Virus record (IMG/VR): IMGVR_UViG_3300007723_000001
Span: 8,278 to 72,277 of that record
Length of the DNA: 64,000 nucleotides
Reading direction: 5' to 3' (one strand)
Source: a virus
Shown here: in pieces, positions 1 to 52,457 of the stretch
Position numbering within the stretch: position 1 is the stretch's first letter
How the letters are laid out: every line of letters starts with the position of its first letter
The notes under the pieces: generated by a model
Seen by the model: only the letters and a program-made list of their open reading frames with translations
The model's database searches: none
What the model was told of the DNA's origin: nothing
Made by a program: the position numbers and the translations under genes

Positions 1-1923
1 TACTTTGCCAGCAGGAGTTTCTAACATTTCGTTTAATACTTGTGTAGATATTAATTTATCTTCATTATAATATCCACCAAATTCACCACTGTAGTCCCCT
101 TTATCTCCGTAGTAAAGACTATTGTCCAACTGCAGCATCCATACCTGATTCAAGTTAGCGTATAATTCTCTTACACTTGCACCTGTATAAGGCTTAGATA
201 CATAGTCAATTAAATTTCTTAATGCAACTCCTGTATCTCCTGCTAAACCTACCTGCCCTCCTGTAAATTCTCTTCCATCTAATCCTTCAAAGGCGAGAGA
301 TCGTGTCTGTAAAAATAAGTGGCTCTCTATAATATCTTTTTGTATTCTTGCTCTTTCATTATCAGAAGCCTGAGCAACTAAAGAGGAATAAGATTGTCTT
401 AATCTCTTTGCTACTGAGCGAATCTCTTGAGGATCAGTAGAAGTGGAAGAGCCAAATTTATTATTATATCTATCTAGAATCCTATTATGAAATATGTATA
501 TTTCTTCATAATTAGATCCTGCTTGGTTAGGACTATTACCTACAGGAGATGTCAAGTTAAATGAGCCTATAATACCCACTCTATCTGTAGTATATACTTT
601 AGGGTGATACATCCCCTTATCTACAAATCGTAATGAGAACCATGTACTCAATATCTGCTCAGTCATCACTGCTGTCTGACTACTGCTTTGGTTCCCACTC
701 ATAGCATCTTCTATTATCTCATCCCTCACATTCCTTAACCTTTCCATAGCTATTATATTGGGACCAAGAATAGCATTCCCTACTTTATTAATTTTATTCA
801 GGTCAGAAGTGGGTGCAGCTAGTCTAATAGATACCTGAAATTTACCTTCTTTAATATCTTGTTTCTTAGTTCTTAATTTATTAACTAAAGTGTCTATAAC
901 TGCCTTATTCTGTAATTGGAATAAGTCGATAGTTAATGAAGAAGTAGAACTTTCTATTATTGCTATTGCTGCTCTAATACCTGGTTTAGATACATAATCC
1001 CTTGAACTTAAATATTCATCAGCAGTAGCAGCCAATCTACTCTGTAAATCCCTAGCTGATTCTTGAGGATCACTAAATACTCTATTAGACCATTTACTCC
1101 GTATCATCTCGGGATTAGTTCTTATGAACTCACTATGAATCCTACTGACCCTAGCAGTTAAATTGTATTCATCGTCTCTAATTATCGAATTTAAAGTATA
1201 AGCACCATATTTAAGGATATTCCTTTCAGACTCATCTATTTGATTTATAGCATCTGGAGTTAAGTTTAATATACTTAAACCACCATAAAAAGATTTGCCT
1301 TGATAATCCAATGTGTCGTGTTGGAACAAATATCTATAAGTATTAGTAGCTAAATACTTCTCGTACTGCTGAGTTCTTATATCATTACTTTTACTGTAAT
1401 CTTTTATTATGGGTGCCACGAACTCATCGTTAGCCCCAAATGTTGCTGCCGATGAAAAGGAGCTATCCAAACCGGTCTGAAAGTTTCCAATAATCCTTTT
1501 TAAAGCATTAGTACCACTGTTAACTGTAGAATATATGTCACCTGAAAAAGCTGTAAAAGCATTCCTAGCTAATGCTCTTCCTACCTCTCTATAAATATCT
1601 ACATGACCTCCATAGCTATTGGTAGATGATCCAGAAGTGTATTTAACTTTGGACATTGCAGAGCCTCTTTTAAAATAATCCAATCTTTCACCTTCAGACT
1701 TTTCTCTGCCCAATCCAGAATAAACTCTATACAGTTCTTCATTTTTACTAGCAGTGACATCATCAGTTGCGTCTCGTTCTTTGTTAAAAGCTAGATGAAA
1801 ATTAGTAGCGTTCTGTAATGAAGAACTTGTGCCAAAAGTGTAGAAGCCTAAAGCCTCATAGTTCCCTTTAGCAGAATTTCCATATGAAGAAAATGGGCTA
1901 TAAAAATAATCATTAAAAGGCAT
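1..1923 (-). CDS. Large protein (>641 aa, runs off the window start) with a phospholipase D/nuclease (HKD) domain; candidate tape-measure/ejection protein
   Basis: Not in ORF track. Hand translation from ATG at 1923 (MPFNDYFYSPF...) is open to base 1. Contains AAIAIIESSTSSLTIDLFQLQNKAVIDTL...FQVSIRL and MYHPKVYTTDRVGIIGSFNLT...NYE, i.e. HxKxxxxD + GSxN (His440 at 604-606). Confidence 0.85.
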   Translation of the reverse strand, partial: MPFNDYFYSPFSSYGNSAKGNYEALGFYTFGTSSSLQNATNFHLAFNKERDATDDVTASKNEELYRVYSGLGREKSEGERLDYFKRGSAMSKVKYTSGSSTNSYGGHVDIYREVGRALARNAFTAFSGDIYSTVNSGTNALKRIIGNFQTGLDSSFSSAATFGANDEFVAPIIKDYSKSNDIRTQQYEKYLATNTYRYLFQHDTLDYQGKSFYGGLSILNLTPDAINQIDESERNILKYGAYTLNSIIRDDEYNLTARVSRIHSEFIRTNPEMIRSKWSNRVFSDPQESARDLQSRLAATADEYLSSRDYVSKPGIRAAIAIIESSTSSLTIDLFQLQNKAVIDTLVNKLRTKKQDIKEGKFQVSIRLAAPTSDLNKINKVGNAILGPNIIAMERLRNVRDEIIEDAMSGNQSSSQTAVMTEQILSTWFSLRFVDKGMYHPKVYTTDRVGIIGSFNLTSPVGNSPNQAGSNYEEIYIFHNRILDRYNNKFGSSTSTDPQEIRSVAKRLRQSYSSLVAQASDNERARIQKDIIESHLFLQTRSLAFEGLDGREFTGGQVGLAGDTGVALRNLIDYVSKPYTGASVRELYANLNQVWMLQLDNSLYYGDKGDYSGEFGGYYNEDKLISTQVLNEMLETPAGKV

Positions 1924-2057
1924 AAGTAAGATTATTAACTTTGTGCATTAATAGATAAGAGGAAGGGAAAGAATAGTTAAATACAAGATATATAAGATGT
2001 AAATTTATTACTATATGAAAATATAAATTACTTTAAAACAACAACTTATTATTATTT

Positions 2058-2078
2058 CTTATATACTGATATATATTA
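2058..2078. promoter_or_regulatory. Candidate regulatory motif in a divergent intergenic region
   Basis: Reverse complement TAATATATATCAGTATATAAG matches 17678-17698 TAATATATATCTGTATATAAG at 20/21 positions; both lie between divergent genes. Very AT-rich, so a chance match is possible. Confidence 0.35.
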
Positions 2079-2103
2079 TAAATTTCATTCGAATATATCT
2101 TAT

Positions 2104-2535
2104 ATGCCTAATCTAAATAAAGTAATCTATCCAACCTTAACTTTACCTTCAGGTAAGAAAGTCCAATTTACAAGTGTAACCTTTTTAGATAGAAGGAGAA
2201 TATTAAAAAGTTATAAGCAAGAACAGGGATACTTAATGGAAGAAATGTTAGCAGCCTATGCCTTACATACTATAGATGGTGAACCTTTAGATACTGGATT
2301 TGGTAGTCCCCAAATAATTGAAAGATTAGATACTTGGGATTACAAAGATGTGACCTATTATTTAGAAGTATTTATGAGGACCGTTATGTTAGATGACGAA
2401 ATGAGGTCTCAAGCAGAATCGGATGCAAAAAAGATATCTTCAGGGGCTACCTCAACAAACCAAACCGTGACAGACAAAGACACGAGTGGTACTCCTTCAG
2501 GTCTTCCCAAGGGATTAACTGTCAATCGAAGTTAA
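2104..2535 (+). CDS. Tail assembly chaperone-like protein (short form)
   Basis: 143 aa, N-terminal TLTLPSGKKVQF, and AKK encoded by a slippery heptamer followed by a long open -1 frame, as in lambda G/GT-type chaperones. Confidence 0.65.
   Translation: MPNLNKVIYPTLTLPSGKKVQFTSVTFLDRRRILKSYKQEQGYLMEEMLAAYALHTIDGEPLDTGFGSPQIIERLDTWDYKDVTYYLEVFMRTVMLDDEMRSQAESDAKKISSGATSTNQTVTDKDTSGTPSGLPKGLTVNRS
2427..2433 (+). other. Programmed -1 ribosomal frameshift site A_AAA_AAG
   Basis: GCA AAA AAG in frame 0; the -1 frame is open from 2433 to the TAA at 3111-3113. Confidence 0.8.
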
Positions 2536-3113
2536 GATGGGCTGCTTTTTGTAACTATAAAATATTAAGTTCGGAGAGATATAAACTTTTATTAAACAAT
2601 GTATTATCAAAGAATAGTTCTTCGGAGAAAGATTCAATAAAAGGAAGTGTTTTAAATGGTACTAATATTATTCATTCTATATTAATAATAAGTAGACCTA
2701 TAGTACCTATTGATTATAAAGATACATTGTTTGATATAGTTCAGTATAGTAAACCTATACCCTTCGAATCATTTAATAATCCTATCCCTATTGATTGGGA
2801 AGAATTGAGGGCTCATAAGGATAGTTTAATTAGAAGTATTTCAGATAATATAAGAAAGAAAGCTAATCTACAAAATTGGATTGTTATAAATACAGTAGCA
2901 AATGGTGGAGTTCCTTTGTACGAAGGAATGAACTGGCTAGACTTAGATGAGTTTTGGATGTCAGCTATCACTGATGAGGTGAATGACTACATCAGAGAAC
3001 AAAATAAGAGTCAACAGCAGTCAATGCAAAAGATTCAAGATCAAATATCTGATAAGTCTTCCCATAATCGCAGTGTATTTAACGACATACCCAAACCCAA
3101 ATTTTTGTCTTAA
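2433..3113 (+). CDS. Frameshift extension of the chaperone (fusion about 336 aa); includes ORF-track 2727..3113
   Basis: The -1 frame reads DIFRGYLNKPNRDRQRHEWYSFR...DYKDTLFDIVQYSK with no stop; the TTG at 2727 is an internal Leu. Confidence 0.75.
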   Translation, partial: DIFRGYLNKPNRDRQRHEWYSFRSSQGINCQSKLRWAAFCNYKILSSERYKLLLNNVLSKNSSSEKDSIKGSVLNGTNIIHSILIISRPIVPIDYKDTLFDIVQYSKPIPFESFNNPIPIDWEELRAHKDSLIRSISDNIRKKANLQNWIVINTVANGGVPLYEGMNWLDLDEFWMSAITDEVNDYIREQNKSQQQSMQKIQDQISDKSSHNRSVFNDIPKPKFLS

Positions 3114-3147
3114 TGTATTATAAGGAGTATCAATTCTATGATTAAGG

Positions 3148-4632
3148 ATGCAAAATAAAACTGTAATAATCCCGCCCTATTTAAGACAAAATAGGATTAA
3201 TGGAGATAGTGTTGGAACTAATGCTTATGAAGGTAGCACTATCCCTAGGCCATTTCTTTCAAATAAAGAGAACTGGGTAGAAAGTGGAAATAATAAAAAG
3301 AACATAAGATTAAATAAAAAGAAGATAGGGCAATTGGGTAGGGCTACTCCTTACTCTTCCTTAGATGGGGAGACCTTTACTACTTGTGTTCAGCCCAATA
3401 GACAAAAGTTAGCTTTATGTGATTATGCTCTAAAAGAAGAGCCTATATTCTTTGATGGAGTCCAGAAAATGACTCATTTCGTTAGAGCAAAACTAGGTGA
3501 ATTCTATCATGAAGATGAAACAATAACTGAGTTCATAAGAGCAAATACTATAAAATTAAAAAGCTGGTTATCTGAAATCACTTTTTCTCTATTATGGAGT
3601 GGAAGGGGAGACTCTGAAATAGTATACAAAAGATGTAAATCAACTTACACGTCAAATCCATTTGAGATATGGATTGATAAGATAGTTAACTTTCATCCTC
3701 TGGATGTCTATTTTGTGTTTGATGAATTTAATTGTTTAAGCCATGGTAAAAAGTCACCAAATAAACAATACCAATCTGGTATATGGGTCCCAGCGCCTCT
3801 ATCTTTTAGAGAAACCTATGATCTAAATAAGGACTATGATGGCCATAGAGTAAGACTACCTGAAAGTAAAGTATGGCATACGGCTATCAACAGTTATGGT
3901 AATAATAGTACTGGATTAAGTCAATTTGAATCAGGTATAAAATTCTTTTTATATAAACAACTATTCCTAGAGATGAATAGTACTGCTTTAGATAGGTATG
4001 GTAATCCCTTAATATATGCTGTAGTACCACCTGGAAATACAGATCAAGTTATAAAAGAACCAGATGGGAGTGTCAGGTATAAATCTTATCATCAAGTTGT
4101 AACTGAAATATTGGAAGATTTAGGTGGTAAGAGTTCAATAGTATTAACTCAAGTAGATAAAGATCATCCTGTTAAGTTAGATTCATTAACTACTGGTAAT
4201 AACTTTAGTGGAGCTTTTGACTCGGCCATTAAATTACGTGAAGATAATATGATGATAGCAATGGGAATACCCAATCTAATACTAAAAGACAATAATAACG
4301 GATTGGGAACTGGAGGTGCTGCTGAAAGACAAATGGAAGCATTCTTATTATTAATAGATAGTATCTACGATACTGTTATGACTGATTTCATGCATGTAAT
4401 AAAGTATCTAATAGAATGGAACTTTCCACCAGAAATGCATAAAGGAAAGTTTGGTGTATTTAATAGTAAGATACTAAGGGTCTCAGAACTAAATGTATTA
4501 GGAAATATAACTGATAAATTGTTAGATAAAGGAGTATTAGACACAAATGACCCTGATGACAATAATTGGATAAGAGAGACTTTTGGTATTCCTACCAGAA
4601 GATCTTTTAATCATCTAGAACAAGACCAATAG
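3148..4632 (+). CDS. Portal protein, Mu gp29/DUF935-like
   Basis: 494 aa; SLLWSGRGDSEIVY, LDRYGNPLIYAVVP, GLGTGGAAERQ, WIRETFGIP resemble Mu-type portals; upstream of protease and capsid. Confidence 0.8.
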   Translation: MQNKTVIIPPYLRQNRINGDSVGTNAYEGSTIPRPFLSNKENWVESGNNKKNIRLNKKKIGQLGRATPYSSLDGETFTTCVQPNRQKLALCDYALKEEPIFFDGVQKMTHFVRAKLGEFYHEDETITEFIRANTIKLKSWLSEITFSLLWSGRGDSEIVYKRCKSTYTSNPFEIWIDKIVNFHPLDVYFVFDEFNCLSHGKKSPNKQYQSGIWVPAPLSFRETYDLNKDYDGHRVRLPESKVWHTAINSYGNNSTGLSQFESGIKFFLYKQLFLEMNSTALDRYGNPLIYAVVPPGNTDQVIKEPDGSVRYKSYHQVVTEILEDLGGKSSIVLTQVDKDHPVKLDSLTTGNNFSGAFDSAIKLREDNMMIAMGIPNLILKDNNNGLGTGGAAERQMEAFLLLIDSIYDTVMTDFMHVIKYLIEWNFPPEMHKGKFGVFNSKILRVSELNVLGNITDKLLDKGVLDTNDPDDNNWIRETFGIPTRRSFNHLEQDQ

Positions 4633-4656
4633 AATTAATAAATAACTATTAGACAA

Positions 4657-5694
4657 ATGGCTACTACTCATCATCGGGAATTAACCCCTGAAGATATTCA
4701 TGAACCTTATTCTTTCAGTTATAGCAATGAAATAGAAAGGAATAAAGATACTTCTATATCTTCTAAAGATGTTAATAAATTAGCTATACAACAGAACAAT
4801 AGAACAATATGGCTTTTGTTAGACACAAAGCCGACTTGGAAACAAGTATTAACTGAAGGGTCTCCTACTTTACCTAGGGGAAATGCCGGTGGAGATTTAA
4901 AAGGTTCATATCCAAATCCTTCAGTTGTAGATGATAGTCATCAACATAGTCCCGGTATAAGTATACCCGCTTATCCTACTACATTAAGACCATCAGGGAG
5001 TGCAGGAGGTAGTCTTGACGGTAATTATCCTAATCCCAGACTATCTAATACAGGAGTGACAGCAGGTCTCTATACAAATCCTCAAGTAGAGGTAAACTCT
5101 GAAGGAAGAATAACGAGTATAGTTTCTAATAGAATAGGAGAAGCTAACGAAGCAATAAATATAGGAGTGGGGAAAGAAGTATATGCAGAGAAGCAAGGTT
5201 CTTCCCTTTTATTTAGGACTTTAAAAGTTGAAGCTAATAGTGGATTAAATATAACACAGTCTTCTAATGAGATCGAAATAAGTAATCTTAATCTTGCTAA
5301 ACTTAGTGGAGCTAACTTCTCTGGTGATATAAGTAGTCCTAATTTAAAGGTAGATGAAAAAGTAGAAACTAAGATTTTACATACACCATTACATGATGCA
5401 GGAATAGGAGGTAGTTGGACTCCTGATGTAGCTAATGGAGTTGTTCAGAAAAGGATTATATCTGGTAATACTTTTATAAATGAGATAAGAGGAGTAGAGG
5501 CAGGGATGAGATTAATTTTAATACTAAAGCAAAATACAGTAGGAAATCATTATATTACTTTAGCAGATGAGTATAAAGTTAAAGAGGGTGAGAATAAAGT
5601 GCTAAGTCTTCCTGCAAATAGTATAGATGTTTTAGAAGTAACAGTACTTTCTAGTAATTTCTATTTAACTCTAATTCATAGGAACTTTAAGTAA
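4657..5694 (+). CDS. Short fibre/decoration-like virion protein
   Basis: Two AGG(D/S)LxGxYPNP repeats, AGLYTNPQVEVNSEGRITS, one NIGxGKEVY...LFRTL repeat shared with the long fibres, beta-rich C-terminal domain. Confidence 0.6.
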   Translation: MATTHHRELTPEDIHEPYSFSYSNEIERNKDTSISSKDVNKLAIQQNNRTIWLLLDTKPTWKQVLTEGSPTLPRGNAGGDLKGSYPNPSVVDDSHQHSPGISIPAYPTTLRPSGSAGGSLDGNYPNPRLSNTGVTAGLYTNPQVEVNSEGRITSIVSNRIGEANEAINIGVGKEVYAEKQGSSLLFRTLKVEANSGLNITQSSNEIEISNLNLAKLSGANFSGDISSPNLKVDEKVETKILHTPLHDAGIGGSWTPDVANGVVQKRIISGNTFINEIRGVEAGMRLILILKQNTVGNHYITLADEYKVKEGENKVLSLPANSIDVLEVTVLSSNFYLTLIHRNFK

Positions 5695-5707
5695 TTGTAA
5701 TTTATAG

Positions 5708-6220
5708 TTAGCCCATATAGTCATTAGCTTTATTAATTAAAGCTTGGCTACCTAAAGCCATAAAAATGTGCTTACAATACTTTTTATTAAAGAGGTAATC
5801 GGCACATGTACAAGTAACAGAAGAAAGGTCATCTAGTTTCTGTTCATTATAATTAACGTCTATAAAGTATTCTTTATTAGAAGGCGTCACACATAAATAA
5901 TTACCTGACACTTCTATTATTAAATAACCTTGAGAGACCATTAAGGCATAATGTTTTATAAGAAATTGTTCATATAGAGACCCCCATTGGGTTCGCGATA
6001 TATCAGTTTTATATGCTTTGTCTTTATAATTAAAAGTTATCCATACTTTAGGTTTCGACTTAATAGAATGATAATCTTTCCTATCATCATGTAATGAATA
6101 AATAGCGGAGGATTTTACTAAGTTACCGGTTGGTTGTACATGTATTTTAATATCTCTTATATCCTTTAATATAATTCCTGATATTGTTTCTAAAACAAGA
6201 ATTTCTTCTAAATTTCTCAT
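5708..6220 (-). CDS. SWIM zinc-finger protein
   Basis: C-terminal CTCADYLFNKKYCKHI = CxCx(n)CxH SWIM motif. Confidence 0.8.
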   Translation of the reverse strand: MRNLEEILVLETISGIILKDIRDIKIHVQPTGNLVKSSAIYSLHDDRKDYHSIKSKPKVWITFNYKDKAYKTDISRTQWGSLYEQFLIKHYALMVSQGYLIIEVSGNYLCVTPSNKEYFIDVNYNEQKLDDLSSVTCTCADYLFNKKYCKHIFMALGSQALINKANDYMG

Positions 6221-6452
6221 TATTTATATTTACTTTTTATTTAAGATGTGTTTGATAAGAGTAATAAATTCTTAAAGAAGAAATATTTAAAGTTACTAAA
6301 ATATTGACTAATAAATAGTTTGATTAAGAAATACCGACTTTATTATATTAGATATATAGAAAGAATCAAGAATACATATATACAACTGCATTTATATTAA
6401 AGTTAGTAAATATAATGTATATATAAATTTATACAAATCAAGTTCATTAAGT

Positions 6453-8162: not shown

Positions 8163-8439
8163 TTTCTATAATAATTATTAATACTTATATGAAATGATTA
8201 GAATAAGTAAGTATAAATAAGCTATTAATAAACTTATATAATTGATTAATAACTATTCTTAAAAGTTAGTAGCTATTATTTGTCTAATACCGAGCGTATA
8301 TTTTGTCACTATTTAATTAGTATTTTTAGAATAATAATAGTAATTCTCCAAATTGATAAAGAGATATTAAACAATAGAATAATGTAGGATGTATAAACAT
8401 CAGATCATTAATAATTAAAATAAATAAAACTTTATAAAC

Positions 8440-9714
8440 ATGCCAACTCAAATTCCTAATAATACAAATTTCTCACCCTATATAAGTGGCTGGGAATCTA
8501 TGGCGGATGGACTATTACCTGGTGAACCGATATACACAGAGGTAGCTAGATCTTTTGTTCCTTTAGTAGGAAGAACTGCTCTAACAGAAATATTCCCTGA
8601 AGAGGTTATTGAGCAACGTGTTGTAGTAATTCAACAATCTCAAGAAGCTACTACTACCATAATGCCTCTAGTAGATTGGGGTAAACAAGATGTAGTAACA
8701 GGGCAGACAGGTGGTACTAGTAAGTTCATGATGGTACAACCTTTAGTAATCCGTCAAACTAAATTCATTGCTCATGGTGAATTGAATACTAGATTACGTC
8801 CTGGAACCATGAATGAACAGTGGTCTCCTTCTGAGCAAATTGATAGGATCATTGAGACAATGGTTCAGGAACATGCTTTAACTTGGGATGTATACAGAGC
8901 CTTAATGTTATTAGGTGGTATTCATTATACAGATCCACGTACTGGTGTATCAGTAGAAGTCAGTGCTCAAATACCTCCTCATAACTTCTGGTCTTACAAT
9001 GTATCTGCCGGATTTATGGGAAGAAACGAAAGTTTAATGTTCAAGTCTGTATTAGATAGTAATACAACTAACTCCACCACAGCAGGAGTTCCATTCACAG
9101 ATCCTAATGCCGACTTGTTAATGGCTATGAGAAGTTTTGCTAATTGGTTCAAAGTAACTAATAAATCCAGAGTTACAGCAATGTATTTATCTGCAGACTT
9201 GTCTCATATCTTAATGAATAACAACCAAGTCAAGTTATCTCAAGGAGGTACAGTATTTGGTATGGGATCCGCTCCAATTGTACGCGACTCAGCTGATCCT
9301 ATCTCTAGTAGTCAGTTTACAATGAATGCTGAAGGTCTATCTTCTATCTCTGGTATACCCTTAAGACCTGTTGAGACTGGATTCCGAGATCCTGTAACTA
9401 ACTTATATAGACCAGTATTCCCTAAGAATAAAATTGTAGCTGTAAGTGAAGTTAATTCCAACGGCGGTAATGAAGCACCAGGAAGAACACAATATTGTGT
9501 ATCTGAAGAATCAGGTGGTAGACCGGGATTATGGACTAGGACTGTAGATGAAACCCAACCTCCAGCGCCTCCAGGAATGTATATTCAAATGGGTAATGCG
9601 GGATTACCTTATCTAAAATTCCCTTATAGAGTAGCACACTTAAACGTTGCTAGTCCTCAAGCTGTGAATAATAGATTGGGTATTGTTGGTGATTACAACT
9701 TTGGAGTGATCTAA
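8440..9714 (+). CDS. Major capsid protein (HK97 fold, lambda gpE-like family)
   Basis: 424 aa after protease; EIFP, EHALTWDVYRALMLLGGI, FTDPNADLL, VFPKNKIV and the C-terminal LP motif fit the gpE-like pattern. Confidence 0.8.
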   Translation: MPTQIPNNTNFSPYISGWESMADGLLPGEPIYTEVARSFVPLVGRTALTEIFPEEVIEQRVVVIQQSQEATTTIMPLVDWGKQDVVTGQTGGTSKFMMVQPLVIRQTKFIAHGELNTRLRPGTMNEQWSPSEQIDRIIETMVQEHALTWDVYRALMLLGGIHYTDPRTGVSVEVSAQIPPHNFWSYNVSAGFMGRNESLMFKSVLDSNTTNSTTAGVPFTDPNADLLMAMRSFANWFKVTNKSRVTAMYLSADLSHILMNNNQVKLSQGGTVFGMGSAPIVRDSADPISSSQFTMNAEGLSSISGIPLRPVETGFRDPVTNLYRPVFPKNKIVAVSEVNSNGGNEAPGRTQYCVSEESGGRPGLWTRTVDETQPPAPPGMYIQMGNAGLPYLKFPYRVAHLNVASPQAVNNRLGIVGDYNFGVI

Positions 9715-9736
9715 TATTATTAAGGATTGAGAAAAG

Positions 9737-9768
9737 GGGAGGAGTATTATTTATATAGTACTTTTCCC
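9737..9768 (+). terminator. Hairpin after the capsid gene (possible terminator or RNA stabiliser)
   Basis: GGGAGGAGTATTA pairs with TAGTACTTTTCCC using G:U; no clear U tract follows. Confidence 0.4.
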
Positions 9769-9885
9769 ACAAAATATATCTTAATAAAAATAATATAAAT
9801 ACATCAATTTAGTAATCACATAATACAATTATTCTTGCTTTAGTATATATCAATATAAAATAATAGTTATTCATCAAAACTTATC

Positions 9886-42163: not shown

Positions 42164-43234
42164 TTAATAACTATTAAAGGTAAATTGTATATCTTCTATA
42201 ACTATTAATTCTGAGTTATTAGGTACAATGTCTGCCACAGGTTCTATCAATCTAATAGACTTTACTCTGTCAAGAGTTGATAGAGAAGAAACTATAGTAT
42301 CTCTATAAAGAGGCTTATTAATAGAAAGCGAGTTATTAAGACTACTAATTATATCCTTTGCTTGGGATTGAATAAAAGCAACGGCATCTACAGTAGTTAT
42401 ATCTACCACTAACCTAATAATTACTGACCTTATCCTAATAGGTCTAATAAGAAAAGCAACACCTGCCGCTTTAACCCTATTTATTGTATTAGATAAACCT
42501 TCTATAAATTGGCTATCTGAAGAATCAATATAAATAGTGAAGTAACCCGTAATAGGAGTATGTTCTTGAATATACATTCTTCTACTACCATACCTAGATC
42601 TATTAATAGCATTAACAATTGCTGACTTAGTTCCTGTCTCCGTACCTCTTAATCTAGCTATTATCCTAGCCCTAAAATCTTCATCTGTTTCTCTACCTGC
42701 TCCATTTTCTAAACCACCTACGGTATTCAATGTCAAAGAGTCTCTATATCTACCAATAGTAAAAGAATGTGAAGGAAGAGTTGAAGCATACAATTTAGTA
42801 CCGGCAGGTAAATTGCTTTCAGAAGAGTTAGATAGTCCCTCTATCAAAATAGATTTCTCCACATTATCTGATATCTTTATAGTACTAACAGTTCTAAATT
42901 GTAGGGATTGATTAGGAGCAGATAGTACTAGTCCTTGTGGTATTATAACTTCTTTACCCTTTACTAAAACATATCCTCTACTTACATCTCCATTACTTCT
43001 AATTAACCCATAGTCTAAAGCTTTAGCGTCAAGATAATCACCAGTAGCTGTTAATATATAAAAACTTTGAAATACAGTATTTAATCTAACATCTTGCTCA
43101 GTTATTGCGGAAGCTATAGCACGAAATATAGCGTATATATTTGTATAAGGATTAAAACCAGCTAAAGATGAGCCTACTGAAACAAGAGTAGTCCTAAAGT
43201 ATTCTATTACTTCTTCTAATGATCTTATTTTCAT
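42164..43234 (-). CDS. Baseplate J/gp47-like protein
   Basis: TATGDYLDAKALDYGLIR, IPQG, GAGRETDEDFRARI, GT..AI. Confidence 0.9.
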   Translation of the reverse strand: MKIRSLEEVIEYFRTTLVSVGSSLAGFNPYTNIYAIFRAIASAITEQDVRLNTVFQSFYILTATGDYLDAKALDYGLIRSNGDVSRGYVLVKGKEVIIPQGLVLSAPNQSLQFRTVSTIKISDNVEKSILIEGLSNSSESNLPAGTKLYASTLPSHSFTIGRYRDSLTLNTVGGLENGAGRETDEDFRARIIARLRGTETGTKSAIVNAINRSRYGSRRMYIQEHTPITGYFTIYIDSSDSQFIEGLSNTINRVKAAGVAFLIRPIRIRSVIIRLVVDITTVDAVAFIQSQAKDIISSLNNSLSINKPLYRDTIVSSLSTLDRVKSIRLIEPVADIVPNNSELIVIEDIQFTFNSY

Positions 43235-43239
43235 TTATA

Positions 43240-43713
43240 TTATGTAGGAGTTAGATTATTTATATCATCAAAGTTTACAATAGTGGAAACCTCATAAGTG
43301 AGTCCACTAATAGAATAATGAATATAAATATCAACAGAACTAGGACCGGTCAAAGCTAATCTAACACTATTAATCTTCACGTCATTAGGAGCATTAGATA
43401 AAGCTCTCTTAATATGATTATTCCCTCTACTTAACCAGTCATAAGTAACAGGTTCAGAAAGTTCTAAGTAGATAGCATTCCCATAAGGTAAATCTTTAAT
43501 CCTTGATCCATATAAATCAATAATCCAAGCTTTTATATAGGTAATAGGAGTCTTTAGAACTCTTGCTAGTAATTTATAAGAAGCTCTATTAGGATCATCT
43601 TCTACTAGATCTAGAACTTGATTAGACCTTACATTTCTATTTGAAATATCTTCTTCTAAATCAATAGGTTGTATTGCCAAATCTCCTTCATATAAAAGTA
43701 AATCAGTAGCCAT
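43240..43713 (-). CDS. Baseplate gpW/gp25-like protein
   Basis: DLLL..GDL, LKTP, PYGN, IKRAL, VDIYIHY; immediately upstream of gpJ. Confidence 0.65.
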   Translation of the reverse strand: MATDLLLYEGDLAIQPIDLEEDISNRNVRSNQVLDLVEDDPNRASYKLLARVLKTPITYIKAWIIDLYGSRIKDLPYGNAIYLELSEPVTYDWLSRGNNHIKRALSNAPNDVKINSVRLALTGPSSVDIYIHYSISGLTYEVSTIVNFDDINNLTPT

Positions 43714-44135: not shown

Positions 44136-44687
44136 CTATTTAACTAGATAGGCATCTAAGGGATTTATAGTATAATAAAACCCTATGTCAGATATATTAA
44201 ATTGTCTTATAACATTATTCTCATCAATCAATCTTAATTTACTACAAGGACCTGATACTAAAGCCATACCTAATTTGGCTAGGTTATCCCAATCCACTAC
44301 AGTGAAGTTCAATACAGTTGGGGTATAAATATCATCTCCATAATGTGGCTTTAGTTGAGTACCGTCCCTCATAAGAAAGAATTGTCTAATTTGTACTTGT
44401 ATAGTATCTTTTGTCATTACTTGTAGCTTACCCTTATAGTTAAAAACTAAATAGCCACCTTCTATAAAATCTATAACCCTCACTGTAGAGTCTAAAGCAT
44501 TACTTTTAGGTATAGGAAGACACAGATCCTTAGGGTAATTTATTTCTAGTTTTCTTAACTTATATAATGTTTCTTTATCCTCTAATTTATCTATCACCTC
44601 TTCAGGCATTTCTCTTATAAGATTTAAAGTCTGAGCTAATCTAGGTAACTGTTCTAATAAAGCAGCTATCTTTGTTCTCTCTTCCAT
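44136..44687 (-). CDS. Hypothetical protein
   Basis: 183-aa ORF overlapping the upstream gene by 22 nt. Confidence 0.55.
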   Translation of the reverse strand: MEERTKIAALLEQLPRLAQTLNLIREMPEEVIDKLEDKETLYKLRKLEINYPKDLCLPIPKSNALDSTVRVIDFIEGGYLVFNYKGKLQVMTKDTIQVQIRQFFLMRDGTQLKPHYGDDIYTPTVLNFTVVDWDNLAKLGMALVSGPCSKLRLIDENNVIRQFNISDIGFYYTINPLDAYLVK

Positions 44688-47600
44688 AACATTCTTTGAG
44701 ATGTAATTTCTATAGTATTAATAGATTCTAATCCTTTACTATACCATCTATTACTATCCTTTATAGACAATGCAGAACCGTTGATTTTTATTTCCTCTAC
44801 ATTATTGAGAATAAGACTTCCATCTCTTGTAGTCATTCTTAATTGTTTTACATTAGATAGAGAAGATATAAAATCAATTAATCTAATTTCACATTGTGCA
44901 TCTTGGGTCTGAAGTATACCAATAAGTTCTATAGGAGACACCCTGCCTGCTGTTTTTATATTACCTGAAGAATCCTCACGTAACTCTCTACCAGCTACAG
45001 GTATTACATTACCGAGAGAGCTCCAAGATCCATCCTGCTCTGTTTGAGCTTGTCTTATATCTTCAAAATTAATTAGATTGCCTGTTCTATCAAAAACAGC
45101 TCTCAATGCTTGGTCAACTCTAGTGACTTCAATTCCATCTGCATTTCTAATAGAATCTAGAATAGAGGTAAGAGGAACTATTTCGCCACTCTCTGTCTGT
45201 CCAAGTATCTTGTCCGGATCAGGTGAGTCGTTAGTTTCGTAAGCTATTATGTCGTTACTAGAATATCTTCTACTAGTAGAATTACCACAATCATTTATTG
45301 ATGAAACTATTAAACTTCCATCACTATTCATTTCTAAAGCTGTAATATTAGGATCAGAAAGGTCCAGTCTCCCTATAGATTCTAAGATGACACCTCTTAC
45401 ATTTCCTATTAAAGAATTCCAAGTACCCTCATTTATATTTGGATTATCTTCATAGTCAATATCTTCTATAGACGGGTCTTCTTGCTCATTAGGATTTAAA
45501 AGCTGACCTACTATGTCTTTAACAGGAGCCTTCGGTTGATAATTAAATGGATCTGATGCTATACCAATAATATCTCCAACCCTATTAACAATATCTAAGC
45601 ATCCTAGAATTGATGTCATTTGAGTAAGTATGGGTACGTCATTCTCATTCATCATAGATAGTAATTCAGGTATTGTCCCTAATGCCTCAACAGTACCCAT
45701 AATTGCAGAAGCATTATTTACCAGACCTTGAATTCTACCTATACTTCCTTCCCCTAATATATTATCTACTATAGAAGATAAGCTTCCATTAGTTATAAGA
45801 TCAGCTACATTACCAGATTGAATGCTTTCTAATAGTGGCTGTATATTATCTAAAATAGGTAAACCTATAGAATCCCCTAAGGTGTAAAGTAATTGTGAAG
45901 ATATATTTTCTATACCATCACCACTAATAATACCTGAAGCTATGGTTTTAGCTATATTGACAATGCTATTGTCTCCTATAGGTAGAGATTGTATCGCAGA
46001 AAATATGGAGTCAGTATCGCCCTCTAATAGTCCAGCTATATCCGAGGGAATATATTTACTTATTTCAGGTAATAAATTATCAGCTAAAGTTAAAATAGCA
46101 TCTTCTATATTAGGAGTATCAGACATTAAACTACAACCAACATCTACTAAAGAAGATAATCCGGGGACTCCACTATCTCCTTGCCTTAGTTTCTCTATGA
46201 CTGATACTGCAGAATTACCTAACCCTATTAAAGTAGATAAATTAGTAATCTGACTAGTTATATTATCTAAACCTTGGTTAATCTGTTCAGTACATTCATC
46301 TGATTCTAATGCTGATAAGTCTCTTAAACTCCTTTCCCATATAGAAGATCTTGATTCATCTACAGGTATCTCAATTGGCATATCAACATCTGTACCAATA
46401 GCCCCTAATAATATTGATGTTTCTTCGAATGACTCTCTAACAATATTCATTAAGGATGATGGTACTCCTCTCTGAGTTAGAATAGATTCAAAATCAGAGT
46501 TATGAGGATTTAAGGTAGTAGCTCCCTCCTCACCTTGCATTACTATATCGGTTATTGAAGAGGCTTCAGTTACAGTTAATCCTTTATTATTTAGAGAATT
46601 AAGTAAAGCAGATCTTGATACTCTAGCTAATAAACCAAATCTACCTTTATCATTTTCATTAGTTATATTGTCTAAAGGATCTTGATCTTCAGTACTAGCC
46701 GACTGTTCTAAATCTTCTATATCATCTGGTTCTTCTTCATCTGGATCTCTATAAGCAGGACCTATGTATACCCCAGGCATATAAGAAATAATATTATCTC
46801 TTGACATGCGTCCTTCGATACCTGATGTAGTAGTTTGTTGTTGACTTAACGTGGATGATTGTTCAGAAAGAGATATTCTATTGCTATATTCAGAATTAAA
46901 AGCAGTAGAAACTTGGTTCGGATTTTCTTCTGATTGCTCTCTTTCTAATTCCCTTGAAAGATTACTTGAACCTCTTCTCTCTAAAGAATCTAATATATCA
47001 TTCTCATGAATATTAAGATCATCTTCATCAGTTCTTTCTCTACGATTCTCCCTTTTGTACTGAGGTGGTATACAACTTTCTAAATCTTCATCTCCAAAAG
47101 AAGTTAGTCTTTCAGGAAAGTGTAAAAGTGATAAGAATTCCGGCAACTCTAAGTTAGGTAATAATTGATCTACTATACTCATGACATTAGCAAAGTCTCC
47201 TAAAAATCCTCCTAGAAAACTTATACCTCCCATATAAGTAGTTGCCGGGCTACCTATATTACCTATCTGTGTATATAGGCCGTGTAGTACATTACCAGCT
47301 TGACTAAAGTTTATAGATTTACCAGTGTTATCAATAAGACTCATAGCCCTAGGAGTTACAGTTGCAACACTATTACTAGAAGTAGTAACTTGATTCCTTC
47401 CCACTATACCTACTTGTTCTGTAGATACTAGACTAGAACCTTGAGGAGAAAGACTTAGAACATTCTGTGCAGATGGACTAGTGGATGAAGCTCCAGATAA
47501 ATTAGATATAAATCCAGATAGGAAAGAAGGAGACTCAATAGAACCATTAGACGTAGTCGCTCCTACAGATAAAGTCATAGTATTACCTACTCTATGAGTA

Positions 47601-48523
47601 GATATATTTTCTACAAACTCTTCTTTATCAGTAGTATGGACTTCTTCTCTTTGAGATTCGGTATGACCAATAGCCCTTGCGAACTGTTGACTTTGACTAG
47701 AGTAGTTACTATACCTAGAGCTTCTATCTTCATGAGATTCAGTAGAAACGTTTATACTCTTTTCAGTGACCCCTATATGTCTACGACTATTAATGACATT
47801 AGAACCAGTTGTAACATTATTAACTTCAGATTCACTATTGTTAATCTCTGTTCTATTGCTGTAAATAGTAGAATGATTTAATAGAATTGGAGCAATGTTA
47901 CTAACGGGACCTAAAGAACTAGTAACTATGGAACCAGAAGAACCAATTCGTATTCCGGCTCCACGATCCATAATACTAATAGCACCTTGTCTTTCAGCTG
48001 ATTCAATAAACATTTCAGCACCACGTCTGGAGAGGTCAATAGTTCTTCTTAAAACATCTGTAACTGATTCTCCATCAATAGTATCTTTTATATTTTTATT
48101 ATTAGCATTATCGTTACTAAGAGAGGATACTTGTTCTACTTTGTCAGTAGTTCTATTAGTTAGATTATAAGTGGTTTGCTGTAGTTGATCATTACTTTGA
48201 ATTAATGGTTGGTTTCCCAACACTTCCCTAACAGCAAATAGATTACCAAAGTCTTGTTTATTAGAACGAATAGAAGGTTGACCTAAAGAAAGACCTTCAC
48301 TATCACTCTTATTATCAATAAAACTTTGAGATAAGGTATTAACATCTACAGTGCTGTTAGATAGACCTATTTGTACTGCTTTTTTAGTATTATTAATAAT
48401 TGATGAGAAAGCCTCATAATGCTTTTTCACATAAGGTTCTCCTAGATTCGGAGTACTAGTAGTTCCAAAAGTATATCCTTCTGGCATTTCTCCTTTAGAC
48501 AAAGATTCTATAATAGGATTCAT
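44666..48523 (-). CDS. Large hypothetical virion protein (Ser/Thr/Asn beta-rich segment, acidic linker, Gly/Ile/Leu helical region)
   Basis: 1285 aa, first gene of the baseplate operon; function not recognised. Confidence 0.5.
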   Translation of the reverse strand: MNPIIESLSKGEMPEGYTFGTTSTPNLGEPYVKKHYEAFSSIINNTKKAVQIGLSNSTVDVNTLSQSFIDNKSDSEGLSLGQPSIRSNKQDFGNLFAVREVLGNQPLIQSNDQLQQTTYNLTNRTTDKVEQVSSLSNDNANNKNIKDTIDGESVTDVLRRTIDLSRRGAEMFIESAERQGAISIMDRGAGIRIGSSGSIVTSSLGPVSNIAPILLNHSTIYSNRTEINNSESEVNNVTTGSNVINSRRHIGVTEKSINVSTESHEDRSSRYSNYSSQSQQFARAIGHTESQREEVHTTDKEEFVENISTHRVGNTMTLSVGATTSNGSIESPSFLSGFISNLSGASSTSPSAQNVLSLSPQGSSLVSTEQVGIVGRNQVTTSSNSVATVTPRAMSLIDNTGKSINFSQAGNVLHGLYTQIGNIGSPATTYMGGISFLGGFLGDFANVMSIVDQLLPNLELPEFLSLLHFPERLTSFGDEDLESCIPPQYKRENRRERTDEDDLNIHENDILDSLERRGSSNLSRELEREQSEENPNQVSTAFNSEYSNRISLSEQSSTLSQQQTTTSGIEGRMSRDNIISYMPGVYIGPAYRDPDEEEPDDIEDLEQSASTEDQDPLDNITNENDKGRFGLLARVSRSALLNSLNNKGLTVTEASSITDIVMQGEEGATTLNPHNSDFESILTQRGVPSSLMNIVRESFEETSILLGAIGTDVDMPIEIPVDESRSSIWERSLRDLSALESDECTEQINQGLDNITSQITNLSTLIGLGNSAVSVIEKLRQGDSGVPGLSSLVDVGCSLMSDTPNIEDAILTLADNLLPEISKYIPSDIAGLLEGDTDSIFSAIQSLPIGDNSIVNIAKTIASGIISGDGIENISSQLLYTLGDSIGLPILDNIQPLLESIQSGNVADLITNGSLSSIVDNILGEGSIGRIQGLVNNASAIMGTVEALGTIPELLSMMNENDVPILTQMTSILGCLDIVNRVGDIIGIASDPFNYQPKAPVKDIVGQLLNPNEQEDPSIEDIDYEDNPNINEGTWNSLIGNVRGVILESIGRLDLSDPNITALEMNSDGSLIVSSINDCGNSTSRRYSSNDIIAYETNDSPDPDKILGQTESGEIVPLTSILDSIRNADGIEVTRVDQALRAVFDRTGNLINFEDIRQAQTEQDGSWSSLGNVIPVAGRELREDSSGNIKTAGRVSPIELIGILQTQDAQCEIRLIDFISSLSNVKQLRMTTRDGSLILNNVEEIKINGSALSIKDSNRWYSKGLESINTIEITSQRMLWKREQR

Positions 48524-48737: not shown

Positions 48738-51700
48738 ATGAACATGCCAATACCCCGCGTTCAGTTTATTGAACAAAATGAGGGGTTTTCACCAGTTAGA
48801 CCTACAGTTACTAATAGAATAGGAATCATTGGTCCTTTCAGTAGAGGACCTGCCAATAGACTGAGATTAATATCAGGCTATACTGATTTCGCAAATACTT
48901 ATGGTTCAGATGGAGCAATAGGCTCATTAGCGTTTCAATCAGCTTGGGATCAAGGAGCCCGAGACTTTGGCTGTCTAAGAATATTAGGTAGAGGTAAATC
49001 AGCCGTAGGTAAAATAGATTTCAGTGGCTACTCTTCTAAAAAGAACGATATGATCTTTTTAATGAAGTTTATAGGGCCCGCTACTAAAAGATCTGAAAGA
49101 GCTTTAAGGTCTAACATAATGACCAGTGGGGATTTTACTGATGGTAATAGTGGTAGATTTTGGTTTAAGGTTGATAAGGTCGATGATGATGATTTTATAT
49201 ATATAAGATATGTATTTATTGCTGATGGTCAAGAAGGACTTATAAATTGGAATCCTGTTACTAGAGATCCGAACAGTATAGCTTTAGACTCAACTTTCCC
49301 TTCAACTTTAGCTAATAAAGTTTTAGCAGAAGCATCACAACAAAGTTCTATATCTACATCTGTACTTCAAATAGTAGGTGCAGAGAAACGGAATTTTGCG
49401 AATGGTTGTCTTGAATTACCTAAACCCGGTGAAGCCTGTACAGCAGCAATAGTGCAAGGATGGAGAGTTATAGTAGAAGCTGGTTCTATGCGTTGGACAT
49501 ATCATATAGACAACGCAGGTCAAAATATAAGATTTGATGCATCTAATAGTGGCTATATAGGTACTATTCCTATCACAGTCCCAGGTACAACTCAAGGTAA
49601 TGATTCTTACAACACTGCCATATGGGGTCAAGAGATCACTATAACTACTACAGGAGTAACAAATAGTAAAGATGCAGTCTTAGCAACAGCTACTACTTCG
49701 GGAGTTATATACCCTTCAGTATTTCATGTAGAAGATTATTTTGTAGTAAATAAATCTGATACAGGGGTACCCTTTGCTGTTGATAAAGGAGTATTCTTAA
49801 CGTTTGATACCTTAAATACTGGAGATGGTGTTGATCTATCTCCTGGAGATATATGGTCAGTAAGAATATTGAGTAAAGAATATACTATACCTATTCATGA
49901 AGAAGCTGTCCCTAGTCAAGTAGTAACAGCATTTGCATCAGTAATGTCTGGAGAAGATCCTGTGGGTGAAATAAAAAGAAATGAAACTGATACAGGATTA
50001 TTATTTGAGTTAGAACCAGAATGGGTAGGTATAGAAGGTAATAACTGGAATTACTATTTAGATCTTGCTGAGCCAGATGGTGAAGTAGTATGCGAAGGAT
50101 CCTTCTTTAGTGGTGAAAGATACATACAAGTCCCTATAAGATTTGCGACTTATATACAAGAGGGGGCTCAAGTAACCACATTAGAAAAGCCTGGCATATA
50201 CGGTGTATATAATATATCTAATCCTTTCGATCCTTTATCTCCTACGTCCAATCCTAATAAGCCAGTAATTTCTTCTAATACAAAAGTTGTAAGAGTAGAA
50301 GCACCAATAACTGGTGGGGGTATGGCAGTAATATGGTTAGATAAACCTATAGAAATGGACTTTGATAGTATAGCGGTATTTCACTTTGCTAATCCATTAG
50401 GATTATCTATGACGCATTACACTCAACATCAAGCTACATTTATGCAGGGAGGTGAAGATCCACCTAGAAGAGCCACTAGAACTCTCTATACTTTAGGTGG
50501 GGTTGGTTTAATACAATTGTTTGCTAACAGTGAGGGGCAATGGGGTAATCAATTGAGGATAGGTGTGTACCCCGAAAGCAGTAGGACTATAAGAATTACT
50601 ATAAGGGATCTAGATTCTGATAATTACGATCCACCATTACAAGATGAAGTATTTGTAATCTCTTTAGATCAAACAGATGATAATGGAGTTCTAACTCAAC
50701 TAAATGCTTCTAAATTTATTAGAGGTATATTCATTCCTAAGGCTAGAAACCCATCGTTCAATATAAAGTACTTAACGATGAGTCCTATGAGATTAGCTCC
50801 TTCTGATCAGAATATAATTGACCCTGAAGATCCAGCCTATCCCGATAACTACGGTCCTGAATATATGTCTAGTTTTTCTTTAGAAGACGGATATGATGGA
50901 CCTCCACTAAATGCAGAGGATTACATCTCGGGTTTAAATTTGATAAAAGATGAACCCATACATATGATTACCACTCCCGGCTTATATAATAGTAGGGAAG
51001 TAAAAGCTCAGATGTTAGCACAGGCAAAGTCAGCTACGGAGATAGAAGGTATGAGAATAGCTATCTTAAATGCTAGACCTGGATTAACTCCCGAAGCTTC
51101 TCATAATGAAACTTTCGGATTTGATTCTCCACATGGTGTAATGGTAGCTGGTTGGGGAACATATATGGGAAGAGTAGGTGCGCCTAGAGGAGGTCAAAGT
51201 CCTGATGCCTATCTAGCAGGAAAATTAGCAGCTACTCCTTACTTTATAGGACCTAATGCTAAGACTAGTGCAGGAGCTGTATTTGGAGTTGCGGAATTAG
51301 ATACTATGCCTCATTCTAGTAAAGGTAAATTGCAAAGGTTTACTGATGCCAGATTGGAAGTTTTACATTTAGATAGAATACTTAATAGATTTAGCTTCTT
51401 AAATGGTAGGACCTTATCTACTGATACTCAATGGGATAAAGTTAGTTACAGAAGAACCTTTAATGTTATAAGGACTGACTTGTCTAAAGTAATGTATCCT
51501 TATTTGAGCGAACCAAATACTCCTAGAAATCATACGAGAATGGCCTCAGCTATAGATGCCTACATGAGTCAAAGGAAAAGGAATGGTCAAATAAGTAGTG
51601 CCACTAATGCCTCTGTAAATAGTCCTAATCCAGCATCTGGTCTTGTTGAAATAAGAGTTAGTATCATTCCTATTTATGCTATGGATTATATAGATATCTA

Positions 51701-51746
51701 CTTAATAAGAGATGATATAGGCTCACCCACTAGACCTTTAGTTTAG
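48738..51746 (+). CDS. Contractile tail sheath protein with large insertion
   Basis: PRVQFIE...GIIGPFSRGPAN, GQWGNQLRI, LEDGYDG, ITTPG, RTLSTD..WDKVSYRR, VSIIPIYAMDYI. Confidence 0.92.
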   Translation: MNMPIPRVQFIEQNEGFSPVRPTVTNRIGIIGPFSRGPANRLRLISGYTDFANTYGSDGAIGSLAFQSAWDQGARDFGCLRILGRGKSAVGKIDFSGYSSKKNDMIFLMKFIGPATKRSERALRSNIMTSGDFTDGNSGRFWFKVDKVDDDDFIYIRYVFIADGQEGLINWNPVTRDPNSIALDSTFPSTLANKVLAEASQQSSISTSVLQIVGAEKRNFANGCLELPKPGEACTAAIVQGWRVIVEAGSMRWTYHIDNAGQNIRFDASNSGYIGTIPITVPGTTQGNDSYNTAIWGQEITITTTGVTNSKDAVLATATTSGVIYPSVFHVEDYFVVNKSDTGVPFAVDKGVFLTFDTLNTGDGVDLSPGDIWSVRILSKEYTIPIHEEAVPSQVVTAFASVMSGEDPVGEIKRNETDTGLLFELEPEWVGIEGNNWNYYLDLAEPDGEVVCEGSFFSGERYIQVPIRFATYIQEGAQVTTLEKPGIYGVYNISNPFDPLSPTSNPNKPVISSNTKVVRVEAPITGGGMAVIWLDKPIEMDFDSIAVFHFANPLGLSMTHYTQHQATFMQGGEDPPRRATRTLYTLGGVGLIQLFANSEGQWGNQLRIGVYPESSRTIRITIRDLDSDNYDPPLQDEVFVISLDQTDDNGVLTQLNASKFIRGIFIPKARNPSFNIKYLTMSPMRLAPSDQNIIDPEDPAYPDNYGPEYMSSFSLEDGYDGPPLNAEDYISGLNLIKDEPIHMITTPGLYNSREVKAQMLAQAKSATEIEGMRIAILNARPGLTPEASHNETFGFDSPHGVMVAGWGTYMGRVGAPRGGQSPDAYLAGKLAATPYFIGPNAKTSAGAVFGVAELDTMPHSSKGKLQRFTDARLEVLHLDRILNRFSFLNGRTLSTDTQWDKVSYRRTFNVIRTDLSKVMYPYLSEPNTPRNHTRMASAIDAYMSQRKRNGQISSATNASVNSPNPASGLVEIRVSIIPIYAMDYIDIYLIRDDIGSPTRPLV

Positions 51747-51758
51747 AGAATTAATATA

Positions 51759-52457
51759 TTGAAAGTTAGTAATGAAATACACACTCGCATTCACATTATC
51801 CTTGAGCTAACTATGCCTTTTGATTATTATACTTGGGTTAACGATAATTCTACTAATGAAAATACATGGTTTGGTGTATTTCAATCTTTAACTTTGTATA
51901 TTAAAAATCCTAAAGAAATCCATTTAGATTCTGTACAAACAAGTTCTACTACATTAAGCAATAAAGGTCGAATAGAATGGGTGTTAGAAACAGGAATGGT
52001 ATATATGGGTTTTGTTGAAAGAAGCTTTGGAGTCTCTTGTATTAGAAAAGATATTTACCCTACTAAAGGTCCTAGATTTCAAATATCCTTTGATACAGCA
52101 TTCACTCCTGATATCTTAATAAGCCCTACACTACAAGAAGTTAATGAAGACTCCTTAATTATTAGTTCTAATAAAAAGGATAGATTCAATAAACTAAGTT
52201 TTGAAGAACACTTCCTTTCTAATTCCTTAGAATCTAACCTCTATAAACATCTTGACAATAACTCTAGAATTAAAGAGACAGGTAGGTATGATTTACTAAA
52301 TGCTAAAGTAGATTGTTTATCTTTAGGATTAATGCCAGGTAGACGCGTAGCTGCTATCCGTTGGGAAGGAGTAGCAGAAGGAGTATGTTATCAAACAGAA
52401 CCAATTCAAAAGTTCATTAGGAGTGAACAATCCAACAGTAAAATAACTACTAAATAG
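51759..52457 (+). CDS. Tail tube-like paralog 1 (probable start ATG at 51813)
   Basis: WFGVFQSLTL, WVLETGMV, GPRFQISFD, GRYDLL, LGLMPGRRVAAIRWEGVAEG shared with 52581. Confidence 0.7.
   Translation: MKVSNEIHTRIHIILELTMPFDYYTWVNDNSTNENTWFGVFQSLTLYIKNPKEIHLDSVQTSSTTLSNKGRIEWVLETGMVYMGFVERSFGVSCIRKDIYPTKGPRFQISFDTAFTPDILISPTLQEVNEDSLIISSNKKDRFNKLSFEEHFLSNSLESNLYKHLDNNSRIKETGRYDLLNAKVDCLSLGLMPGRRVAAIRWEGVAEGVCYQTEPIQKFIRSEQSNSKITTK

Follow-up and report, generated by a model that had tools for sequence, protein, structure and literature searches.

A giant gp080-family protein encoded beside the portal of Fukuivirus-like myoviruses, with a predicted phospholipase D module and a candidate RNA polymerase core

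Giant RNA polymerases carried in the virion are found in N4-like, crAss-like, and P23-45-like phages, and each has altered the understanding of early phage transcription. Gp50 of N4, a very large single-chain enzyme, is made late, packed in the capsid, and ejected to transcribe the early genes; it is T7-like and not of the two-barrel type. The very large single-chain polymerase gp66 of the crAss-like phage phi14:2 is reportedly made late, packed in the capsid, and ejected for early transcription. Gp96 of P23-45 is a giant two-barrel RNA polymerase of the virion fused to the tape measure (PMC10770324). Here we describe a giant open reading frame (ORF) at the left edge of a 64,000-nucleotide (nt) stretch of virus DNA (the window), bases 8278-72277 of the IMG/VR record IMGVR_UViG_3300007723_000001. 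The reading to which we give a slightly better than even chance is that the ORF specifies a virion-delivered phospholipase D (PLD) phosphodiesterase fused to a two-barrel RNA polymerase, encoded beside the portal of Fukuivirus-like myoviruses, and not a tape measure. The protein looks like an injected enzyme rather than a tape measure because it has a PLD head and its relatives have an RNA-polymerase-like core.

The record is a single linear contig of 72,277 bases with 32% G+C and a CheckV completeness of 47%. An original prediction, made from the letters of the window alone, had reported a minus-strand frame of 641 codons running off the window edge and had taken it for the N-terminus of a very large protein. 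The frame is present with its ATG start, and no stop codon interrupts it between the edge and contig base 1, so that it spans 3400 codons in all (contig 1-10200). The ORF therefore measures at least 3400 amino acids (aa), and relatives have 3200-5400 aa. The complete protein probably exceeds 4,000 residues; judged against its homologues, the present copy is probably some 1000-2000 residues short and cut by the contig end, since the relatives are far longer and the contig is rated as incomplete. A circular contig, with the stop of the ORF lying one codon past the junction, was considered and rejected on the same completeness value and because the relatives are all 1000-2000 aa longer.

The giant protein matches phrog_31006 (E 2e-33), a profile of 3562 positions with no assigned function, which corresponds to gp080 of Microcystis phage Ma-LMM01 (YP_851094, 3562 aa, "hypothetical protein"). 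BLASTP alignment with gp080 is collinear over aa 303-2914 of the window protein at 22-28% identity. A word-indexed search recovered 11 metagenomic giants (4397-5384 aa) whose PLD regions show 26-43% identity, and BLASTP alignment with these proteins (4400-5400 aa) is collinear over aa 26-2950. Exhaustive search of 1.84 billion representatives gave 37 proteins at E<=1e-3, and no ordinary small PLD protein is among them; 31 measure 3212-5372 aa, and the other six are pieces of 250-1467 aa. Lengths in the family range from 3200 to 5400 aa, mostly through an insert that precedes a downstream DFDGD loop. With significant collinear similarity and a shared gene neighbourhood, the ORF is, by sequence comparison, an orthologue of Ma-LMM01 gp080 and adds a truncated member to the gp080 family. 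The same family includes the orthologues in MaMV-DC, MaMV-DH01, MaMV-CH, and MaMV-DL, and both HKD motifs of the window protein are shared with gp080. Relative to gp080, the window protein has about 130 extra aa at the N-terminus, groups with the longer relatives (4400-5400 aa, 36-43% identical), and ends with the contig before the DFDGD loop. To judge from the relatives, the full protein would have about 4400-5400 aa and would run into a beta'/Rpb1-like core around an invariant GDFDGD loop.

PLD enzymes cleave phosphodiester bonds via a covalent phospho-histidine intermediate. Residues ~300-900 of the giant protein form, by motif conservation and structure model, a two-lobed PLD-superfamily module with both HxK...G(S/T)xN motifs intact. 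The first motif reads H440-x-K442-(x)4-D447...G453-S-F-N456, and the stretch that completes it contains AGSNYE at aa 468-473. The second, H829-x-K831...G854-S-S-N857, has its HxK (H829, K831) and GSSN (aa 854-857) beyond the window edge and within the contig, so that the superfamily pattern HxK(x)4D...G(S/T)xN, which PLD enzymes carry either in two copies per chain or in one copy on each subunit of a dimer, occurs twice in the chain. The original prediction had claimed an intact PLD domain, had placed HPKVYTTD at bases 583-606, and had suspected a second repeat near base 230 (ALRNLIDYVSK...ELYANL, aa ~563). HPKVYTTD indeed spans these bases (aa 440-447), the suspected repeat is the true start of lobe 2, and extension of the ORF past the window edge brings the count of HKD motifs to two, which pair into one two-lobed module.

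The family alignment (A2) has 41 rows, and H440, K442, N456, G469, and E473 are the same in every one of them, while H829, K831, and S855-S856-N857 are kept in at least 90%. By a strict regular expression, 29 of the 38 giant relatives have both motifs, eight have one, and one has neither. Conservation across 41 rows and presence in most giant relatives make the HKD motifs more than a chance occurrence. A structure model of aa 290-920, built with 21 relatives as alignment, has the two-lobed alpha/beta PLD fold, with a predicted local distance difference test (pLDDT) value of 74.5 and a predicted template modelling (pTM) score of 0.77; model residues 329-363 and 495-511 are of low confidence. 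The best ~50 Foldseek rows are all PLD-superfamily proteins (E 9e-3 to 0.1, none <=1e-3), and over model range 24..624, second lobe included, the model aligns with two-lobed PLD enzymes. The enzymes compared include vaccinia F13, phosphatidylserine synthase, bacterial and human PLD, the 5' exonucleases PLD3/PLD4, and the one-lobe nucleases Nuc, NucT, Zucchini, and BfiI. In contrast to the solved PLD structures, with which it is only 8-17% identical, the module described here is fused to a giant protein, and long helical insertions, which include the two low-confidence segments, separate its lobes and interrupt lobe 2.

All 11 metagenomic giants and gp080 carry GDFDGD far downstream of the PLD module (once as GDYDGD). 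Of the 38 giants, 35 have the loop as D[FY]DGD; in the remaining three the aligned residues read DWDGD or DLDGD. The loop lies among the conserved blocks FRSPPPG, NPxS..LGDFDGDPYT, LGKAGG..LGKTYNT, and QLLRDSIKPK, which we take to resemble the NRAPTLH, NADFDGD, and bridge-helix segments of beta'. A model of this region was made from P0030, the most compact relative (1063 residues; pLDDT 65, pTM 0.57). Foldseek rows with probability >=0.7 are only beta' chains, namely phage AR9 7s00_d (0.97), 1iw7_D, 6j9f_D, and 6vvv_D. Two aligners, one of them independent of Foldseek, select RNA polymerase largest subunits from 48,161 and 350,542 chains, and no other family in these two sets gave long alignments. 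DFDGD of the model (residues 364-368) falls within an aligned beta' segment, 342-931, in which NADFDGD presumably occupies about 458-464. When BFVD was searched with the polymerase-region model, the only significant match was a piece of Ma-LMM01 gp080 (E 1e-17), and the other rows were helical tail proteins of low probability. On balance, a polymerase core in the gp080 family is likely.

The structural matches are thus to beta'/Rpb1 chains of multisubunit enzymes, unlike phi14:2 gp66, whose fold neighbours are reportedly QDE-1-like polymerases; no QDE-1-like polymerase is among the fold-match rows listed for the P0030 region. Both phi14:2 and N4 are podoviruses, and their polymerases have no PLD domain. 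P23-45 gp96 resembles the gp080 family in being a giant phage protein with a DFDGD loop, with otherwise no sequence likeness to known polymerases, and with a hydrophobic C-terminal part. Gp96 has its polymerase at the N-terminus and serves as tape measure in a very long-tailed siphovirus, whereas in the gp080 family a PLD module heads the protein, the polymerase-like core is C-terminal, and the gene belongs to the head module of a myovirus. Among the rows listed, none matches gp96 itself by sequence or fold.

Packaging of the giant protein in the virion is suggested by gene position, by expression timing, and by analogy with other phages. The giant gene is divergent from a block made up of small genes, the portal gene, and the major capsid gene, and this order is common to 12 of 15 related IMG/VR loci, and to Ma-LMM01 and MaMV-DH01. 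The 15 loci were recovered with an alignment as query, a single-sequence query having given none, and those with the conserved neighbourhood share only 25-45% identity. In Microcoleus phage My-WqHQDG the giant gene is inverted, yet it still adjoins the portal block. Expression values of Ma-LMM01 gp080 are zero at the first two time points, and the gene is placed in class B5 ("M"), like portal gp083 and tail gp097-099, in supplementary file 3 of the transcriptome paper (PMC5780444).

Cysteine is absent from all 3400 aa, against 196 residues in the 19,496 aa of the other 41 ORFs of the window (1.0%). About 34 cysteines would be expected at that rate (Poisson P ~1e-15), and each of the 38 giant relatives (3200-5400 aa) has none or one. 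A hydrophobic glycine-rich segment is found near the C-terminus in relatives P0001 (aa 4504), P0008 (aa 4279), and P0015 (aa 3324), and in gp080 (aa 3317). Expression class, cysteine avoidance, the hydrophobic C-terminal segment, and the virion precedents together make ejection plausible. The original prediction had called the giant protein an ejected tape measure; ejection is still the best guess, now on these grounds, and the tape-measure identity is given up below.

If this is so, the giant protein would be made together with the structural proteins, stored close to the portal inside the head, and ejected with the DNA into the host. The polymerase part would then transcribe phage DNA in the host. 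The two histidines of the PLD module would cleave a phosphodiester through a phospho-histidine intermediate, and the PLD part may either nick or degrade nucleic acid, DNA or RNA, or attack phospholipid of the membrane during entry. Nucleic acid is very slightly favoured over phospholipid as the target. A more far-reaching proposal, which we hold only tentatively and at well below an even chance, is that Ma-LMM01-like myoviruses pack by the portal, and inject via the contractile tail, one cysteine-free protein of 400-600 kDa that combines a PLD with a complete, diverged beta-beta'-type polymerase. Either by nicking or clearing nucleic acid or by opening the membrane, the PLD head would allow the polymerase to start host-independent phage transcription.

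Such a protein would extend the giant virion polymerases to the cyanophages with contractile tails by which toxic Microcystis blooms are controlled, and to marine or freshwater relatives of these phages. It would be the first such virion polymerase in a non-jumbo myovirus, and would add a two-HKD PLD, an enzyme not previously seen fused to a polymerase. It would also overturn the published view that Ma-LMM01 relies solely on host sigma-70 transcription. A concrete and testable function is offered for the largest gene of Ma-LMM01, annotated only as hypothetical. A full-text literature search, whose coverage did not extend to the Ma-LMM01 genome paper (J Bacteriol 2008), gave no description of gp080, of a PLD-polymerase fusion, or of a phage polymerase in this group, and none of a contractile-tailed phage whose head module encodes a giant beta'-like protein with a PLD head. 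Two-HKD PLDs and virion polymerases are separately known; the search suggests that the combination of a PLD head with a giant beta'-like protein is new.

Several points weigh against a packaged PLD-polymerase. As regards packaging, the literature search turned up no proteomic analysis of virions for any gp080-family phage, and the MaMV-DH01 paper lists mass spectrometry as still to be done (PMC9927357). The Ma-LMM01 transcriptome paper ascribes all three gene classes to host sigma-70-like promoters and found no phage-specific motif (PMC5780444). Since host sigma-70-like promoters explain all classes, there is no obvious job for a phage polymerase. The best of the alternatives, and still an unlikely one, is that the giant protein is not packaged at all and is an intracellular machine for middle or late transcription or for DNA processing, the proximity to head genes being incidental. 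This would agree with the lack of proteomic evidence of packaging, with the transcription of gp080 in the middle class, together with 97 middle-promoter genes that include non-structural ones (PMC5780444), and with the occurrence of non-virion polymerases in P23-45 and in jumbo phages (PMC10770324, PMC2919709). Incidental proximity is difficult to reconcile with a link to the portal block that outlasts inversion in My-WqHQDG and holds across relatives at 25-45% identity. Cysteine avoidance and the hydrophobic C-terminal segment would also better suit a translocated protein than a cytoplasmic enzyme. To our knowledge, every giant single-chain phage polymerase, those of N4, phi14:2 (gp66), and P23-45 (gp96) included, is a virion protein.

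Further points of the same kind concern the enzymatic parts of a virion-delivered PLD-polymerase. In contrast to solved PLD structures, the gp080 family does not conserve the aspartate in its second HKD motif, and the motif 2 spacer is longer. Pfam PLDc_2 scores 22-22.9 bits against a cut-off of 27 (E 8e-5 to 1.6e-4), and it is not listed when the whole 3400 aa are scanned with Pfam. It matches five of seven N-terminal pieces of the family below or near the cut-off (best E 4.7e-6) and two of the 11 whole relatives. A profile of the PLD module (A5) finds no PLD match among PDB sequences, and phmmer with the whole 3400 aa finds no meaningful match there. Because Pfam scores are below threshold and the family profile finds no PLD in the PDB, the sequence evidence for PLD is only suggestive. 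In the structure comparison, lipid enzymes, nucleases, and polyphosphate kinase tie within ~2 Z units; none stands out, and the PLD substrate is therefore not readable from the fold.

As regards the polymerase, no DxDxD is present in the 3400 aa of the window protein, because the contig stops first, and the core is deduced from relatives. The P0030 region model is modest and helical, many of its alignments have a root-mean-square deviation >10 A, and Foldseek gives no row at E<=1e-3. Pfam detects no polymerase family in the 11 whole relatives, and a profile of the DFDGD region (A6) finds only coiled coils among PDB sequences. Alignment of A6 with E. coli RpoC by hhalign covers only a 14-residue motif (probability 1.2%). 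The central region (A7; window-protein aa 1295-2464 and six relatives) finds no match among PDB sequences and aligns with E. coli RpoB at a probability of 0.4%, giving no second beta-like barrel.

With every sequence-profile test for a polymerase negative and no second barrel identified, the DFDGD region may not be a polymerase. The loop would then bind metal in some other way, the fold matches would be helical coincidence, and the giant protein would be a PLD-headed structural or ejection protein. We regard this as doubtful, somewhat more so than an unpackaged enzyme. The choice of RNA polymerase largest subunits by two aligners, the absence of long alignments to any other family, and the position of the model DFDGD inside the beta' segment argue against coincidence. 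The loop and the flanking R-x-P and N-P-x motifs are, in addition, invariant among proteins as little as 22-25% identical.

The weakest alternative takes the giant protein for the tail tape measure, or for a fusion with one as in P23-45 gp96, the enzymes being carried through the tube; we think it improbable and reject it because of the head-side position of the gene, the missing hidden Markov model (HMM) match, the missing chaperone pair, the length mismatch, and the presence of a better candidate. The original prediction had put the giant gene in the tape-measure position, noting that frameshifting chaperone genes normally adjoin a tape measure gene. The position is not supported, and no such chaperone pair adjoins the giant gene. 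The giant gene adjoins portal and head genes, here and in 12 of 15 relatives, and not the interval between tube and baseplate genes; it is outside the tail module, in which sheath and tube genes occupy 48738-53402 and baseplate genes 42164-43713. The neighbouring small ORFs (2104-2535 and 2727-3113) are not a G/GT-type chaperone pair, since they do not overlap, being 191 nt apart, are on the opposite strand, and precede the portal gene. No tape-measure PHROG or Pfam HMM matches the giant protein, and there is no transmembrane-like segment in the 3400 aa. Family length varies from 3200 to 5400 aa, mostly by the insert before the loop. Tape measures follow a length rule of ~1.5 A per residue. 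Applied to the orthologue in MaMV-DH01, ORF102 with 3562 aa, the rule predicts ~534 nm, against a tail reported as 260 nm in the abstract of the MaMV-DH01 paper.

On the side of a tape measure are the moderately hydrophobic, glycine-rich segment that the relatives have near the C-terminus, as do many tape measures, and P23-45, which shows that a polymerase can be fused to one (PMC10770324). The original prediction had also stated that no other clear tape measure gene is in the window. This stands in so far as no window ORF is matched along its own body by a tape-measure family; where tape-measure PHROGs do match, it is on peptidase or VanY domains of other proteins. It fails in so far as a better placed candidate exists at 44666-48523. 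The gp25-like and gp6-like baseplate genes follow directly downstream of this 1285-aa ORF and an adjoining 183-aa ORF, which together weakly resemble Ma-LMM01 gp098 (E 3e-5 and 2e-4). Because the similarity is weak and no tape-measure family matches, a tail role is proposed for them from position only, and the candidate is unproven. Another ORF, 20157-22259 (700 aa), is gp093-like, and the gp093 gene adjoins the tube gene in Ma-LMM01; it was dropped by eye as a tape measure, being globular-looking, rich in cysteine and tryptophan, and without a long helical or hydrophobic stretch.

Features of the giant gene and of the structural module in the window (positions in window bases)
Feature	Position	Strand	Remarks
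Giant ORF, first 641 codons	1..1923	minus	ATG at 1923; open at window edge
Start of PLD lobe 2, aa ~560-641	1..246	minus	
PLD lobe 1, aa ~303-490	454..1017	minus	
GSFN (aa 453-456) and PVGNS..QAGSNYE stretch to aa 473	505..567	minus	completes motif 1
First HKD motif HPKVYTTD, aa 440-447	583..606	minus	H440, K442, D447
Divergent intergenic region	1924..2103	none	between giant gene and head-gene block
Small conserved gene, 143 aa	2104..2535	plus	phrog_32670
Second small ORF	2727..3113	plus	between 143-aa gene and portal gene
Portal protein gene	3148..4632	plus	phrog_113, E 6.6e-17
Major head protein gene	8440..9714	plus	phrog_30785, E 8.5e-108
gp6-like baseplate gene	42164..43234		
gp25-like baseplate gene	43240..43713		
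Candidate tape measure/central tail protein	44136..48523	minus	two ORFs, 1285 aa (44666-48523) and 183 aa (44136-44687)
Tail sheath gene	48738..51746		
Two tube-like paralogues	51759-52457, 52581-53402	plus	both phrog_34837; after sheath gene

The window as a whole is a myovirus structural module that includes several cell-wall hydrolases. Its capsid gene is 40-45% identical to the counterparts in Ma-LMM01, MaMV-DC, MaMV-DH01, and a Microcoleus phage. Homologues of the 143-aa gene are present in 14 of the 15 related loci, and in 12 of them the homologue is located between giant gene and portal gene; the 143-aa protein (2104-2535) may serve the giant protein as partner or chaperone.

In the tail module, the counterpart of gp098 (1177 aa) is split. 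The 1285-aa and 183-aa ORFs overlap by 22 nt, and the 183-aa ORF matches the last 80 positions of the gp098 PHROG; a frameshift, programmed or due to an assembly error, and a real split are both possible. Ma-LMM01 has one tube gene against two here, and its sheath protein has 774 aa against 1002 aa. Downstream of the baseplate genes, a tail protein of 1271 aa (38316-42131, minus strand) has 37 cysteines, the highest number in the window and a contrast to the giant protein with none.

Other genes in the window include one for a 944-aa protein (22277-25111, plus strand), which combines a baseplate-type N-terminus (phrog_30576) with two further domains, one of the VanY D-Ala-D-Ala carboxypeptidase type (E 2.5e-23) and one of the beta-lactamase family (E 1.6e-12). 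It is unusual for a tail protein to carry such a pair of cell-wall enzymes. The products of the adjacent genes 25628-26926 and 26944-28368, also on the plus strand, both end in an M23-type metallopeptidase domain, from which their tape-measure PHROG matches solely stem, and the first has a lysozyme-like N-terminus. The adjacent minus-strand paralogues 29233-32085 (950 aa) and 32157-36398 (1413 aa) both belong to phrog_877, whose role is unassigned, and correspond to Ma-LMM01 gp109 and gp108.

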